A stretch of 64,000 nucleotides of DNA from NCBI GenBank assembly GCA_963735035.1, contig CAVTJJ010000004.1, positions 1,408,001 to 1,472,000 of the forward strand, written 5' to 3'. This stretch comes from an uncultured candidate division Zixibacteria bacterium (GTDB taxonomy: Bacteria > Zixibacteria > MSB-5A5 > GN15 > FEB-12). This document shows, one piece after another, positions 42,001 through 48,000 of this stretch. Within the stretch, counting starts at the first letter, position 1, and every line of letters starts with the position of its first letter. The position numbers are program-made.

Positions 42001-45000
42001 AGATGCGTTCCCAGGAAGAGTTTCGTAGCGTGCCCGTGCTGATGGCGACGTCGGCCGGAGTCGAAGAGGACGTCAAGACCGCTCTCAACGCAGGAGCGTC
42101 CGGGTATATGGTAAAACCGTTTACGGCCGATGCGTTGGTCAAGAAGATCAACTCGATTTTGCACCCCTATCGCAAAGTGGTCAAATAGCCATACAGCTTC
42201 CATGCACCGACTTCTGTCCAGTCAGTCAAGAGGACGACGGGGGTGAAAGACTTCTACTACATCGAAGATGGTAACGCCAGTCGCGCCATTCTGGATCAGC
42301 TTCTGGAGCGGTCCCAGGTTGAGTTCCTGACGAAGAAGATTGACAGGGACGAACCCGAAACGGTCCGGCGGGTTCTTTCACTTGTCTGCCAGTCTGTCTG
42401 TGAAGTAATCGCAACCCTGACAGGAGTGTGTCCGATTCCTCGCGAGGCCGTCAAGGTGGCGGTCAATGCCCGTCCGCTCGGCAAAATCACAGCTTGCATG
42501 AAATTCCAGGGCGAAGTCACGGGAACAATAGCTCTCAGTCTGAATCCGGGGCTGGCCCGGGCGCTGGCGGCAGGAATCGCCAGGTGCGACGAAGCAGATT
42601 TAACTGATGACGATGTCCGTGATGGGGTGGGCGAAATAACCAACCAGACGTCAGGGCTGATGCGGACGCTGCTCAGCGACTGCGAATTGGTAACCTGCAT
42701 CGATCTGCCCGAAACCCGGACTGACAGATGTGCCGCCGGCGAAAGCGCAGGCTTCGAGCCCTGCTATGTGCTCATCTTCGAATGGTGTGCTCAGCGCTTT
42801 GCCGCCCAGGTGATGTTGCTCGAGCCGAGAGAAACCCGTAAGCCGTCGTAGGGCAGAACCCTCGACCGCTTCGGGCGAGCGGTTCTGCCGAACAAGAGTA
42901 GCTACTTATTCCTCAGGGTATCCCGTATTTGTCGCAATAAGAGCGCGATCACGAATATCACCAGAATGGCGGCGAATTCCAGAAGACGTCCCGGCTGGTA
43001 CGGCATCGAGGCCAGGCGATAACCGAACCATTCAATGATCCACTCGATCAAGGCGACCAACAACAATAGAGAGGCGGCCGCAAAGAGCAGCCGGCTGATC
43101 AGGCTGTAGTGACTGTCTTTCATGATTTCATGCCTCCTTCTACAAGCCCGCGGTTCGGTTGATGGTTTTGACCTGTTTGTGCATCAGGTTATTGGCCATG
43201 TGCACCCTGACTATGCGGATCGTCCCCGTGTCGTCGGTAAACCAGAGCTGGAACCAGCCCGGATACTCCGGCGCCGAGGTCACCGAAACAAGTTTGCCGT
43301 ATGATGCCGGCAGGTCACTGAGGGGGGTGGTCAAATCAGGGCTGGCGGTTTCTGTGGAGATTTTCTCGCACGAAAGGCCGAACCCGACTACCAGGACAGC
43401 GAGCAAAGCCGGCGCGACAAGTCTTCTCATCTGAGCCTCCATATGTTTGCGCTTGCCTCTAGATGTCGTGACCAGACAGACATCGGACGATGCCTGTCGG
43501 ATGTATCCCTAAAATGGACTAAGATGACGTTTTGAGCAAGGGGAAAGTGGGGGTGGATGCGGCACGAGAGGGACAGTGCAGTGAAGTCGGCAGATGTGGA
43601 CATCTGCCGGGCACGTGGTACGAGAGCGTGAAGCCCGGTGAAGTCGGCAGATGTGGGCATCTGCCGGGCACGTGGTACGAGAGCGGACAGGCCAGTGGTG
43701 AAGGCGGCGGACCGGGCACTACAAAGGTGGACGACAGTCTCAGGCAGGCGTCAGGTCACACCCCGCCAAAGGCGGGGCAGGACCTGACGCAACCAGGTGA
43801 GCGTCACTTCTGGCCGAGTTCGCCGATGGGGAGCGCCTTCAGGCGGCTGAGGCATTCTGTGAAAGCGGCTTCAGCTTCAGCTTTGGTGGCGCGCTTGGAG
43901 ATGACCAGTTCAAACACCAGCATCTCGGTGCGGCCATCGACATATGCGATCATGGCATTAGGAATGAAACGTCCCGGATTATCGATGTAGAAGGTCCGCA
44001 CTGGTTGGCCGGACGCGGCGCGTAAGTGATCAGCCGCCGATATTGAAACCCCTTTGCCGTAGTGCTCGCGGAGAGAGGTCGTATCCCGTCCGAGAACGTC
44101 AGCGAAAACCAGACCACGGATCTTGTAGATATTGACGCCGATGGTAATGTCGGCGGAGTCGTAGGCCTGATTGTCCGGGATAAACGCGAATGAATAGCCG
44201 TCGGCGGCCGCCGCAGAATCGACCATGTCAAATCGATCCGGAGGCGCTATGACGTAGTTGAGCGACTCGCCTTTGTAGAAGGCCGCGTGAAGGTCGGTCG
44301 TTTTTTTGGGTTGGCCGGCCAGCACGGTGGCGCACAAAGCCAGTATCAGCAGGGGAGTGGTTAGCTTCATATTTGTGGATTATCGGCCGTAAGGCAGGCC
44401 CGCTTGGGTCTAAGTTAGGAGTAGTCCGGTGGGCTGCGAAAACCTGTTCAAAAACCGCGCTTTCCCGTCTTTACACGGCCCCGAAACCGATGTATACTGG
44501 CCCCGGAATGTCCCGAACGAAGCTTTGAAATGGCTGTTACGAGAGACGAGTATATAACCTGTAACTGAGGTAAGACATGGCAGGAATAGTTGGTTATGGT
44601 GCCCATTTGCCGAGGCACCGAATCAAAGTCGAAGAGATCGCCAAGGTCTGGGGTACCGACGCGGCCAGCTACAAAAAGGGGCTGATGTTGCGCGAAAAAT
44701 CGGTTCCACCACCGGACATGGATACGATTACTCTTTCGGTCGAGGCGGCCAAAAACGCCTTCCGACGGGCCGGCAATATCGACCGCTCCAAAGTGGGAGC
44801 GATCTACATCGGCTCCGAATCCCATCCGTACGCCGTGAAGCCGTCCGGCACGACGGTTGGCGAAGTAATGGGTATTTTCAATGATTGTCACTGCGCTGAT
44901 TTCGAGTTCGCCTGCAAGGCCGGCTCGGAAGCTATGTTTGTCGCTCTGTCGCATGTCAAGGCGGGCGAAATGAAATACGCTCTGGCCATCGCGGCGGATA

Positions 45001-48000
45001 CGTCGCAAGGAGCTCCGTCGGATGCTCTCGAATTTTCGGCGGCGGCCGGCGCGGCGGCGTTTATTATGGGCACGGACGATTTGATCGCCGAATGTTTGTT
45101 CACCCATTCCTGGATGCACGACATGCCCGATTTCTGGCGGCGCGAACACGAGTTCTATCCGCAGCACGCCGGACGCTTCACCGGTGAAGAGGCGTATTTC
45201 ACGACCACCCGGGGCGCGTCAGAGGCGATTCTGAAGAAATCCGGAATGAAACCGTCCGATTTCAAGTACGCCGTCTTCCACCAGCCGAACGGCAAGTTCC
45301 CGCAGCGAGTTGCCCTTGAGCTGGGTTTCACGCAGGCCCAGATCGATCCGGGCTGGCTGTCGCCCCGTCTGGGCAACACCTATTCCGGAGCGTCGCCGAT
45401 TGGTTTGACCGGCTGTCTGGACGTTTCCAAACCGGGCGATTTGATTTTCATGTGCTCTTACGGTTCCGGCGCCGGGTCGGATTCTTTCGTCTGGAAAGTG
45501 ACCGACCGGATTGACAAAGTTCGCAATCTGGCCGTGGGTACACACAAGTTGTTGGATGAGAATCTGACCTATATCGAATACGGCACTTACGCCAAGTTCC
45601 GGCACAAAATCATCAAGAACAAGTAGGAGATGAGTATATCATGAGACCTGTTTGTGTTGTTGGCGCCGGAATGAGTCAGTGGGGCGAAGTCTGGCGCAGA
45701 TCACTTAGAGATTTATATGTCGATGCGGCCCGCGCGGCTATTAAGAACGCCGGAGTGGACCATATCGATTCCATGTATGTCGGTTGCATGACCGGCGGGT
45801 TGTTTGTCGGTCAGGAACATATCGGCGCGTTGATGGCCGACTATCTCGGCATGCCGGGCATTTCTGCCACGCACGTCGAGTCGGCTTGCGCGTCCGGCGG
45901 AATAGCGTTCCGTCAGGCGTTTATCGAAGTCGGTTCCGGGATGTCAGAAATTGTCCTGGCGTCCGGTGTCGAGAAGATGACCGACTGTTCCGGCGACGAG
46001 GCGACGGCCGCTCTGGCGACCGCTGCCGATGCCGAATACGAAGTTTTCAACGGCGCGACGTTCCCAGGGCTGTACGCCCTGATGGCGCACGCCCATATGC
46101 ATAAGTACGGGACAACCCGCGCTATGCTGACGGCGGTGTCGGTGAAGAACCATTTCAACGGTTCGATGAACCCGTTCGCACAGTATCCATTCAAGGTGAA
46201 GGCCGAGACGGTGGAAACGTCGGTGATGGTGGCCGACCCGCTTCGGATTCTCGACTGCTCGCCGATTACCGACGGCGCTGCTGCCGTGATCGTCTGCAGT
46301 GAAGAGGTCGCGAAGAAACTCAAGAAACCGTACATCAAAGTGCTCGCGTCGGCGCTTGCGACCGACATCATGCAGTTGGCCCAGCGTGAAGACATCACGA
46401 CGATCAAGTCGGCCACGATTGCATCGCAGAAGGCGTTGCAGATGGCTGGGAAGAAGATCACCGACATTCAGTTTGCCGAAGTGCACGACTGCTTCACGAT
46501 CGCCGAGATCATGGTAGCTGAGTCGATCGGCCGTTACAAACCGGGCCAGGCGGGTCCGGCGTTTGTGGCGGGCGAGAGCGCGCTCGACGGCAAGTTCCCG
46601 ATCAATCCATCCGGCGGCTTGAAATCGAAGGGCCATCCGGTCGGTGCGACCGGTGTCGCACAGATCGTCGAAGTGTTCAAGCAGTTGACGGGTGTGGCTG
46701 AGAACGGCCGCCAGATCAAGGGCTCGCCGAAACTGGCCATGACTCAGAACATGGGCGGCACCGGGGCCTCGTCGGTGGTCCACATCATGGAGGTGGCATA
46801 ATGTCGATATTTCCATCAAGAGTATGGCGTGAATTCCCGCAGCGGTATCGGATGGAGGCGGTTCGCTTCAAGAAGAGCGGCAAGACCTACTTCCCGCCGC
46901 GCCAGGTGGACCCGATCAACGGCGACACCGAATGCGAGAAAGTCATCCTGCCGGAAACCGGCAAAGTGTCTACTTACACCGTGATTCGTGTTGCTCCGTC
47001 GCAGTGGGGCGACCTGTCACCGTACGGACTGGCGATAGTCGAACTGACAGACGGCACGAAGTTGTTCGGACAGATGACCGACTGCAATGTCGATCAGATC
47101 AAGATCGGCATGGAGGTGCGAATCGAGTTCCGCAAGGTGCAGAGCGAGGGTTCGCACGGCGTCCTGAGCTACGGTTACAAGTTCGTCCCGAAGTGGTATT
47201 GAGTTTGTAGGTCGAAACCAGCCCGCTTCGGGCGGTTTCGACATCGTGTGATACAACCGGCAGGCCTGCGGGCCTGCCGGTTTTGTTTTGTGATTGCGTA
47301 CCATCGCGTTACATACTATCTTGATTGAAGTCTAACTAGAACAAAAGGGACAGGACATGTCGTGGTACGACGCAATCAAAGACGCAATTGATGTCGCAAA
47401 GAGGTTCGATCAGACAGAATTGTACGACAAGCTTCTGAAATTGCGTGAGGAAATGAGCGAACTTCGCGATGACAACATCGCTAAGACAGAGAAGATTCGA
47501 GAGCTTGAGGAACAACTGAAACTCAAGGCACTAATCGAGTTCGACAAGGGGGTTTACTGGATCCGAAATGACCCTGCAGCAGGCGGTGAGTGCGATACCC
47601 CAATCTGTCCGAATTGCTATGATTCGGAGAAGAAGGTCATGCGCCTGCCCATATGCACATTGTCTAGTGGTCCCGTGGTATACTGCTGGAACTGTAAGCT
47701 TGAGCAACATGTGAAGTAATAGATAATCGTCTCAAAATCACAGAGCGATGACTATACATGAAAGATCGTTTGAAGAGTGACTGTGGTTCCGCTGATTCTG
47801 TAATGCACAAAGACACAAGGAAGCGATTCGCGACGGTAGAAGTAAAGCATGGCCCGTTGCAGGTGCGCGAGAATTGTGGTCAGGGCGTTAACGCCGAGCT
47901 TGGGTTGGACCACGAAATCATCGCGCACGAGTACTTTCCGACAGACGTGACGGTTGACTTCTATACACTAACCCTACGGCGAGCAGTTTACTCAATTGAC

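Follow-up and report, generated by a model that had tools for sequence, protein, structure and literature searches.

An archaeal-type HMG-CoA synthase, thiolase and DUF35 operon of Zixibacteria that may run in reverse to end leucine breakdown

HMG-CoA synthase is normally treated as a one-way enzyme. Among the described systems close to the locus studied here is the archaeal thiolase/HMG-CoA synthase/DUF35 complex (PDB 6ESQ, 6ET9), which it resembles in all three subunits, in the best structural-database matches and in all catalytic residues. In contrast to that complex, the trio is bacterial, is mostly carried by genomes lacking HMG-CoA reductase and is part of an operon with 3-methylcrotonyl-CoA carboxylase (MCC) and a hydratase; the DUF35 protein of its own family lacks zinc ligands, and we propose that the trio runs in reverse. 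With the Liu pathway of leucine and isovalerate breakdown (MCC, LiuC hydratase, LiuE HMG-CoA lyase) the genome shares MCC subunits, a probable hydratase, acyl-CoA dehydrogenases and IlvE, but it has neither the lyase nor acetoacetate activation, and the trio occupies that slot. The layout of carboxylase, hydratase and AtuA, to be compared with the Atu pathway of Pseudomonas and with CmlAB (PDB 9ERQ, 9EVF), alternates with the trio in the phylum; zixibacterial AtuA, however, accompanies MCC instead of geranyl-CoA carboxylase and is missing from the present genome. The alternative isovaleryl-CoA pathway of Myxococcus (AibA/B/C) likewise combines HMG-CoA synthase with a LiuC-type hydratase without mevalonate, but its synthase is of bacterial type and its decarboxylase a dedicated one, in place of the archaeal-type complex and the biotin-dependent MCC found here. 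The Friedel-Crafts acyltransferases PhlACB and MucABC and PfACAT/HMGS-DUF35 have the same three-part architecture in bacteria but have lost the catalytic tetrad that the trio keeps (PMC12960953).

The trio consists of three open reading frames on the same strand within the stretch of 64,000 nucleotides that was analysed ("the window"; Table 1). Its preliminary description as archaeal-type synthase, thiolase and DUF35 was confirmed by profile scores above the cut-offs, namely TIGR00748 (457.6 versus 353.35 bits) and PRK04262 (479 versus 244) for the synthase, PRK06064 (501.8 versus 420) for the thiolase and PF01796 (61.7 versus 27.1) for the DUF35 protein. The PDB matches agreed: 6esq was the top match of the synthase (E = 3e-115) and of the DUF35 protein (3e-28), 7yvy (5e-104) and 6esq (3e-100) were those of the thiolase, and PhlA (8e-57), PhlB (6e-9) and PhlC (8e-26) were weaker throughout. 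The E-C-H-N tetrad of the synthase is invariant in 119/119 distinct sequences, as is the HDxF motif of the thiolase in 106/106, and the thiolase has the CxS, HDxF and GH motifs. Judged by these sequences, the trio is real and its catalytic residues are intact. A DUF35 protein with OB fold is adjacent in 68 of the 69 related loci that have room for it. All four cysteines of its zinc ribbon (two CxxC) are replaced in this protein and its own-family relatives; most other families retain the ribbon.

Table 1 Features of the trio and of the downstream cluster (window positions)
Feature	Position	Strand	Remarks
Trio promoter candidate, sigma-70-like	44470..44498	+	TTTACA-17-TATACT; consensus match only
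Archaeal-type HMG-CoA synthase	44577..45626	+	Tetrad E81/C113/H235/N267 intact
Archaeal/SCP2-type acetoacetyl-CoA thiolase	45641..46801	+	C83, HDxF (H282), H332 intact
DUF35 scaffold (OB fold)	46801..47202	+	All four Zn-ribbon cysteines gone, likewise in own-family members
Intrinsic terminator candidate closing the trio	47255..47282	+	12-bp stem, T tail
Promoter-like motif of atuA/MCC block	53879..53907	+	TTTACA-N17-TATATT; conserved; no atuA behind the motif here
MCC beta subunit	53996..55609	+	Probable start 54002
Crotonase, probable methylglutaconyl-CoA hydratase	55619..56407	+	Assigned by context
Biotin carboxylase subunit of MCC	56417..57946	+	
Biotin carboxyl carrier protein	57873..58436	+	
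Second thiolase of the cluster, ordinary bacterial	60363..61553	+	
3-Hydroxybutyryl-CoA dehydrogenase	61582..62445	+	PRK05808 437.6 over 408
Acyl-CoA dehydrogenase	62420..63598	+	Nearer butyryl-CoA than isovaleryl-CoA dehydrogenase types
Second acyl-CoA dehydrogenase	63602..64000	+	Start only

The MCC and hydratase cluster, previously placed 7 kb downstream, begins 6.8 kb after the trio. MCC-beta matched its human and Pseudomonas counterparts at E = 1e-219 or better, geranyl-CoA carboxylase at 7e-136 and ordinary PCC at about 1e-72, and thus has the MCC-type carboxyltransferase of Liu-type clusters; the MCC tree was built in a quick version. The best families of the crotonase were LiuC-like (PRK07468, 270 bits; PRK05674, 237 bits), both below cut-off. 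Past the window end, BioY-like and IlvE genes come next.

In this genome, which is 96.9% complete, we found no HMG-CoA reductase, mevalonate kinase or IDI-2, the sole GHMP kinase being IspE-like, and the MEP route is complete (dxs, dxr, ispD/E/F/G/H), as had been proposed. Searches of the same genome returned neither an HMG-CoA lyase nor a CoA-transferase fold (PF01144). Its only PF00682 match, located in a segment of foreign GC content, is a homocitrate synthase and not an HMG-CoA lyase, and leucine synthesis by LeuA was rejected, as the only match sits in a segment of 0.67-0.71 GC and no native LeuA was found. E. coli queries identified no genes for Thr, Arg, His, DAP or Phe/Tyr synthesis; VorB, IlvE, ETF and a heme-copper oxidase are encoded.

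We then surveyed 121 Zixibacteria genomes, 44 of them from the own family; these are kin and not independent, so that P values overstate. The synthase occurs in 95 genomes, which upholds its retention by most of the phylum (60/81 in the preliminary description), and every one of the 95 carries MCC-beta, while a full synthase or AtuA is missing from all 11 genomes that lack MCC. HMG-CoA reductase is rare, as stated earlier from 10/81, with 15/121 genomes, but its complete absence from the own family (0/32) did not stand (1/44). A role outside mevalonate is supported by the lack of reductase in 80 of the 95 synthase genomes and by dxr in 113/121; it is not universal, because the mevalonate cassette of 15 genomes draws on the same HMG-CoA pool. 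Synthase and MCC share a contig in 68/95 genomes; in 65 of these MCC follows downstream on that strand within 16 kb, and in 46 within 4.5 kb. In most families the trio and MCC form a single conserved operon. IlvD was detected in 0/121, HisD in 6/121 and a CitE-type lyase in 1/121 genomes.

The trio alternates with enzymes of predicted cleaving function. Among the 15 MCC genomes without synthase, the AtuA-family C–C lyase directly precedes MCC-beta in 11 and an HMG-CoA lyase lies in the cluster in three, and in one the contig ends at the thiolase; trio loss thus occurs only where a lyase is present (14/14). The AtuA layout was found in 31 genomes and the lyase version in eight, one of them with AtoDA in the cluster. 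Strong AtoDA-type transferase matches occur in 7/8 lyase genomes and in none of the 70 genomes that have the trio without AtuA and without MCC-linked lyase. Thirty-nine of these 70, including the present one, also lack other HMG-CoA-lyase-family matches, acetoacetate ligase, family-I CoA transferase and reductase, a strict count that excludes genomes with lower-scoring lyase-family matches. Thirteen such matches were rejected as leucine lyases: in the ten loci inspected they are located away from MCC, with a CaiB-type transferase and mostly LeuC/D-like genes alongside. In the operon tree (FastTree, 52 rows), four separate trio losses and four AtuA-lacking clades in the own family were observed, but never the loss of both. 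All 29 MCC genomes lacking a heme-copper oxidase retain the trio; a lyase is present in one of them, compared to 38/81 with the oxidase. In a fold search AtuA resembled citramalate lyase CmlAB, at 14% identity to CmlA, which makes it a candidate for HMG-CoA cleavage; a single-sequence PDB search gave no match, and the best profile match had an E value of only 0.013. Acetoacetate-CoA ligase accompanies AtuA in 26/31 genomes, but we rejected this as a sign that AtuA yields acetoacetate, since five of six loci inspected are Phe/Tyr breakdown clusters according to their ORF starts.

These findings suggest, with a probability of roughly 0.6, that the complex cleaves leucine-derived HMG-CoA backwards into acetoacetyl-CoA and acetyl-CoA (or acetate), with its thiolase providing the pull. 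We infer this direction because the genes belong to a leucine-breakdown cluster across the phylum and swap with cleaving enzymes; the lack of alternative routes in the 39 genomes of the strict count, the distribution of AtoDA, the motif shared by atuA and MCC, the constant retention of the trio where the heme-copper oxidase is missing and the broad amino-acid auxotrophy, seen in the HisD count and the missing synthesis genes, speak for it as well. Leucine would be converted to isovaleryl-CoA by IlvE and then VorB or a 2-oxoacid dehydrogenase, and further to HMG-CoA by acyl-CoA dehydrogenase, MCC and the hydratase. The reversed synthase would load the free carboxyl arm of HMG-CoA onto Cys113 and release acetoacetyl-CoA, which the coupled thiolase would split with CoA at once. 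Transfer of the acetyl group from the enzyme to CoA would yield, in total, three acetyl-CoA from HMG-CoA and two CoA and save one thioester; alternatively, the acetyl-enzyme may be hydrolysed to acetate, which is thermodynamically easier. Net cleavage to three acetyl-CoA is presumably uphill, by +5 to +20 kJ/mol according to the values we assume, and by calculation it stays positive at +15 kJ/mol or more even with CoA/acetyl-CoA = 10. Further points against reverse cleavage are the co-occurrence of the trio with AtuA (20 genomes) and with an MCC-type lyase (five genomes, in four of which the trio is divergent, at 52-54%, and unlinked to MCC), the butyryl-type dehydrogenases and the heme-copper oxidase of this genome although AtuA is lost; a lyase of unknown family may also exist. 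Tentatively, and at slightly less than even odds, we extend the proposal to a channelled complex that forms three acetyl-CoA in vivo as the lyase-free, thioester-conserving majority route of leucine catabolism in Zixibacteria and would recur in further uncultured lineages; AtuA would then be a second HMG-CoA-cleaving enzyme, not homologous to the complex, that displaces it in oxygen-respiring relatives. We found no description of such a role in the literature searched. If true, a step treated as one-way would serve as a main catabolic route in reverse, for which reversed citrate synthase is a comparable case, and one ATP-equivalent would be saved per leucine. It would also explain the missing HMG-CoA lyase in many genomes, call for correcting annotations in which this synthase is taken to indicate mevalonate synthesis, and provide a definite candidate substrate for AtuA.

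Vice versa, the operon might be synthetic, the trio forming HMG-CoA from three acetyl-CoA, followed by dehydration, decarboxylation by reversed MCC and reduction to isovaleryl-CoA for iso-fatty acids or for VOR carboxylation to leucine. We regard this as unlikely but worth serious consideration. The complex is known to work in the forward, synthetic direction (PMC12960953), and Myxococcus forms isovaleryl-CoA with MvaS and LiuC (PMC9636800). The absence of IlvD from 121/121 genomes (and its presence in only 1/5 outside genomes with the operon), together with the lack of a native LeuA here, makes synthetic use of the same genes plausible; VorB, IlvE and ETF are at hand, and the dehydrogenases resemble reductive Bcd types. 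Yet the trio is replaced by modules of predicted cleaving function, and the family-I CoA-transferase fold, to which we take AibA and AibB to belong, is absent from 70/70 trio-only genomes. Histidine synthesis is mostly missing, so amino acids are apparently imported, and in one Bacteroidales-titled genome the operon coexists with a normal IlvD and a LeuA-like gene. If the synthetic reading is correct, the phylum would make isovaleryl-CoA or leucine by a route not described so far. Less probable still is forward flux into another sink, either mevalonate in genomes with the cassette or some methylglutaconyl-derived product; leucine breakdown would then end with a lyase that has escaped recognition, and the genes would be linked because they share a metabolite. 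All 15 reductase genomes carry the trio, seven of them without dxr, which suits forward flux; the eight cassettes inspected contain neither thiolase nor a synthase of their own, and in four genomes the divergent trio is separate from a full lyase pathway. However, most carriers lack a reductase, MCC accompanies the trio in every case, loss of the trio is confined to genomes with a lyase, and no conserved gene of unknown role lies in the operon. It is very improbable that the trio has been turned into an acyltransferase of the PhlACB or MucABC kind. The common three-gene architecture, the lost zinc ribbon and the 1,030 bacterial clusters reported, most without known role (PMC12960953), suggest it, but those enzymes have lost both the tetrad and HDxF (PMC12960953), whereas the trio keeps them, and no PKS/NRPS is among the labelled neighbours.

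The trio promoter candidate is weak alone, since four such sites were found compared to 5.2 expected in shuffles, and alignment of the two upstream regions revealed no similarity outside the promoter hexamers. The motif TTTACA-N17-TATATT has two matches across the whole genome; in relatives it precedes atuA in 16/19 cases and MCC-beta in 12/14 atuA-less genomes. By this pattern, the present genome appears to have lost AtuA and kept its promoter-like motif.

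The genes of the archaeal-type HMG-CoA synthase, thiolase and DUF35 protein (the trio) lie where they had been reported, and all three products exceed their family cut-offs. In a PDB comparison, the best solved relatives were the archaeal complex 6ESQ for the synthase and DUF35, and 7YVY and 6ESQ for the thiolase, with PhlACB far behind each time. Across the loci fetched, the synthase tetrad E81, C113, H235 and N267 was unchanged in all 119 distinct full-length homologues, and C83, HDxF and H332 of the thiolase in all 106 distinct sequences. According to PMC12960953, tetrad and thiolase catalytic residues are needed for HMG-CoA formation and are missing from the bacterial complexes studied there. 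None of the four zinc ligands is left in the DUF35 protein of this genome and its own-family relatives, and the same loss is observed separately in a few lineages beyond the family. In four genomes that also carry HMG-CoA lyase and AtoDA (loci L122, L123, L186, L187), a trio of divergent sequence (52-54% identity) is not linked to the methylcrotonyl-CoA carboxylase (MCC) genes, and its DUF35 has no zinc ligands.

As the preliminary description had stated, MEP genes are present and no HMG-CoA reductase was found in this genome (96.9% complete); nor were mevalonate kinase or IDI-2. Its claim that most Zixibacteria keep the synthase and lack the reductase also held in our survey of 121 phylum genomes including this one, a subset of a larger group, each at least 90% complete (synthase 95/121, reductase 15/121; Dxr 113/121). 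The proposed role other than mevalonate is supported and extended below. A patchy four-gene mevalonate cassette (idi2, fused HMG-CoA reductase/mevalonate kinase, mvd-like, pmk-like; L317-L324) was present in 15 genomes, eight with dxr and seven without; it occurs only alongside the trio, and its own synthase was missing in the eight of 15 inspected.

MCC-beta was found in 110/121 genomes and accompanies the synthase in all 95 synthase genomes, sharing one contig with it in 68. It lies on the same strand at most 16 kb downstream in 65 genomes, at most 4.5 kb in 46, and immediately after DUF35 in 33 (manual count). The gene series synthase-thiolase-DUF35-MCC-beta-hydratase-biotin carboxylase-BCCP recurs across families; genes for thiolase, hydroxybutyryl-CoA dehydrogenase, two acyl-CoA dehydrogenases, BioY and IlvE often come next. 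In the window, 6.8 kb separates the trio half from the MCC half, in agreement with the 7 kb described for the MCC/hydratase cluster, and each half has one promoter candidate. Inserts related to the REP-associated tyrosine transposase of this cluster lie between DUF35 and MCC-beta in relatives. Among the best 80 of 590 related loci from other genomes, 69 of them bearing non-Zixibacteria titles, MCC-beta or hydratase occurred in 34 of the 47 having 4 kb downstream, and lyase, reductase or AtoD in none of the 80. Several titles (Ignavibacteria, Eubacteriales; L198, L199, L204, L205, L237, L238, L241) clash with MCC-tree place or gene order, the tree putting several of these loci among Zixibacteria or Aminicenantes.

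Locations of features in the window and elsewhere in the genome (G000)
Feature	Sequence	Positions
Split clpB	window	38294-40796
Trio	window	44577-47202
MCC cluster	window	from 53996
REP-associated tyrosine transposase	window	58569-59093
Putative foreign or chimeric region (L043)	G000:C2	1-27000
Acyl-CoA mutase locus (L178)	G000:C3	140847-152054
Split acyl-CoA dehydrogenase	G000:C4	819517-820663
Split dxs	G000:C4	1365502-1367351

Fifteen MCC genomes lack the synthase. AtuA, a putative C–C lyase family (31/121, one protein query), stands immediately upstream of MCC-beta in 11 of them; HMG-CoA lyase (family over cut-off in 20/121) lies within the MCC cluster in three, once with AtoDA adjoining; in the last, a contig end breaks the locus, with thiolase and DUF35 still there. 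Full synthase and AtuA are both missing from all 11 genomes without MCC. PMC4847356 tentatively names AtuA an acetate-releasing lyase in the Atu pathway; such an enzyme would cut the same bond that HMG-CoA synthase forms. A FastTree tree of 52 rows (43 own-family MCC genomes and nine others of the order; some deep nodes have weak support) shows four losses of the trio and four own-family clades without AtuA, with no case in which both are gone (P = 0.008 for zero overlap under independent losses, 43 genomes, kinship ignored). The motif TTTACA-N17-TATATT, counted in the 33 of 42 loci extended as far as the start, precedes atuA in 16/19 genomes and MCC-beta in 12/14 atuA-less genomes; the entire genome studied here has two matches to it. 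The shared motif suggests that atuA appears to have been lost from behind its promoter, here included. The AtuA-MCC operon of L113 and L114 has no hydratase gene, and a crotonase sits in a separate CoA-transferase/thiolase cluster. In ten loci (L180-L185, L189-L191, L194), an HMG-CoA-lyase-family gene forms a conserved operon with genes for a CaiB-type CoA transferase and LeuC/D-like subunits, which may serve citramalate-type catabolism.

Native HMG-CoA lyase, AtuA, CitE-type lyase, CoA transferases of three families and acetoacetate ligase were not found in this genome. With the reductase also missing, the trio is the only link between HMG-CoA and acetyl-CoA here, in either direction, barring an unknown enzyme. 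This state, a trio without AtuA, any HMG-CoA-lyase-family match, acetoacetate ligase, family-I CoA transferase or reductase, is common to 39/121 genomes; phylum-wide, CitE-type lyase occurs in 1/121, family-I CoA transferase in 19/121 and acetoacetate ligase over cut-off in 39/121. Several relatives (L311-L315) have a Phe/Tyr breakdown cluster with terminal acetoacetate-CoA ligase, which the ligase search did not find here.

We propose, with a probability of about 0.6, that the trio acts catabolically, cleaving HMG-CoA at the end of leucine breakdown. Both modules that replace it cleave, and the CoA transferase tracks the lyase (7/8 genomes), not the trio (0/70; cross-counts from genome handles matched by hand), which argues for this direction. 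So does gene content: many amino-acid pathways are missing from these organisms (tryptophan genes were found), and IlvE, VorB and an E1 dehydrogenase are present. The heme-copper oxidase family, which includes NO reductases, was found in 91/121 genomes, ten of the negatives being deduced from family tallies. Among MCC genomes, lyases occur in 38/81 with an enzyme of this family versus 1/29 without, and the trio is missing from 14/80 versus 0/29; such a split is what energy saving by the trio predicts.

Tentatively, and at somewhat less than even odds, the products would be three acetyl-CoA (HMG-CoA + 2 CoA -> 3 acetyl-CoA). The estimate for this reaction, +5 to +20 kJ/mol, counts against catabolism: by calculation, cleavage at +10 kJ/mol becomes negative only with CoA/acetyl-CoA near 10, and at +15 kJ/mol it stayed positive in every scenario tried. 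A variant in which the trio would release acetate sidesteps the uphill energetics and seems unlikely; the Staphylococcus HMG-CoA synthase reportedly gives acetoacetyl-CoA and acetate when run backwards. The complex may also be a near-equilibrium link working both ways, as suggested by the 20 genomes with trio and AtuA, the five with trio and lyase, and the cassette confined to trio genomes, seven times without dxr. Standard branched-chain amino acid synthesis is missing phylum-wide (IlvD 0/121), and HisD was found in 6/121. The lack of IlvD from every genome keeps alive the doubtful possibility that the whole operon runs synthetically, making isovaleryl-CoA, for which PMC9636800 offers a myxobacterial precedent; the cleaving replacements point to the catabolic direction. 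That the trio runs forward into another sink is improbable, and a function as acyltransferase is very improbable.

No paper on the trio–MCC operon or its reverse use was found, with subscription papers and bioRxiv supplements outside our view; the accessible portions of PMC7495880, PMC6431249, PMC4682846, PMC12016498, PMC11522927 and bioRxiv 2024.07.05.601840 contain neither. PMC12960953 counts 1,030 bacterial three-gene clusters, most without assigned role, and its supplements gave no match to Zixibacteria, Aminicenantes or methylcrotonyl (about 4 million characters of the large file were covered, and it may give accessions only). A known complex occupies a pathway position that is not yet described.

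Elsewhere in the genome, L178 encodes two acyl-CoA mutase large subunits, one of them perhaps an isobutyryl-CoA mutase; genes for propionyl-CoA carboxylase and an acyl-CoA dehydrogenase and a MeaB-like gene share the locus. L043 (GC 0.67-0.71 versus 0.555 for the genome) carries homocitrate synthase, LeuC/D/B-like genes and what we take, from its sequence start, to be a PylC-like gene; this segment is probably of foreign origin or the product of a chimeric join. The splitting of clpB, an acyl-CoA dehydrogenase and dxs across frames suggests indel errors of the assembly.
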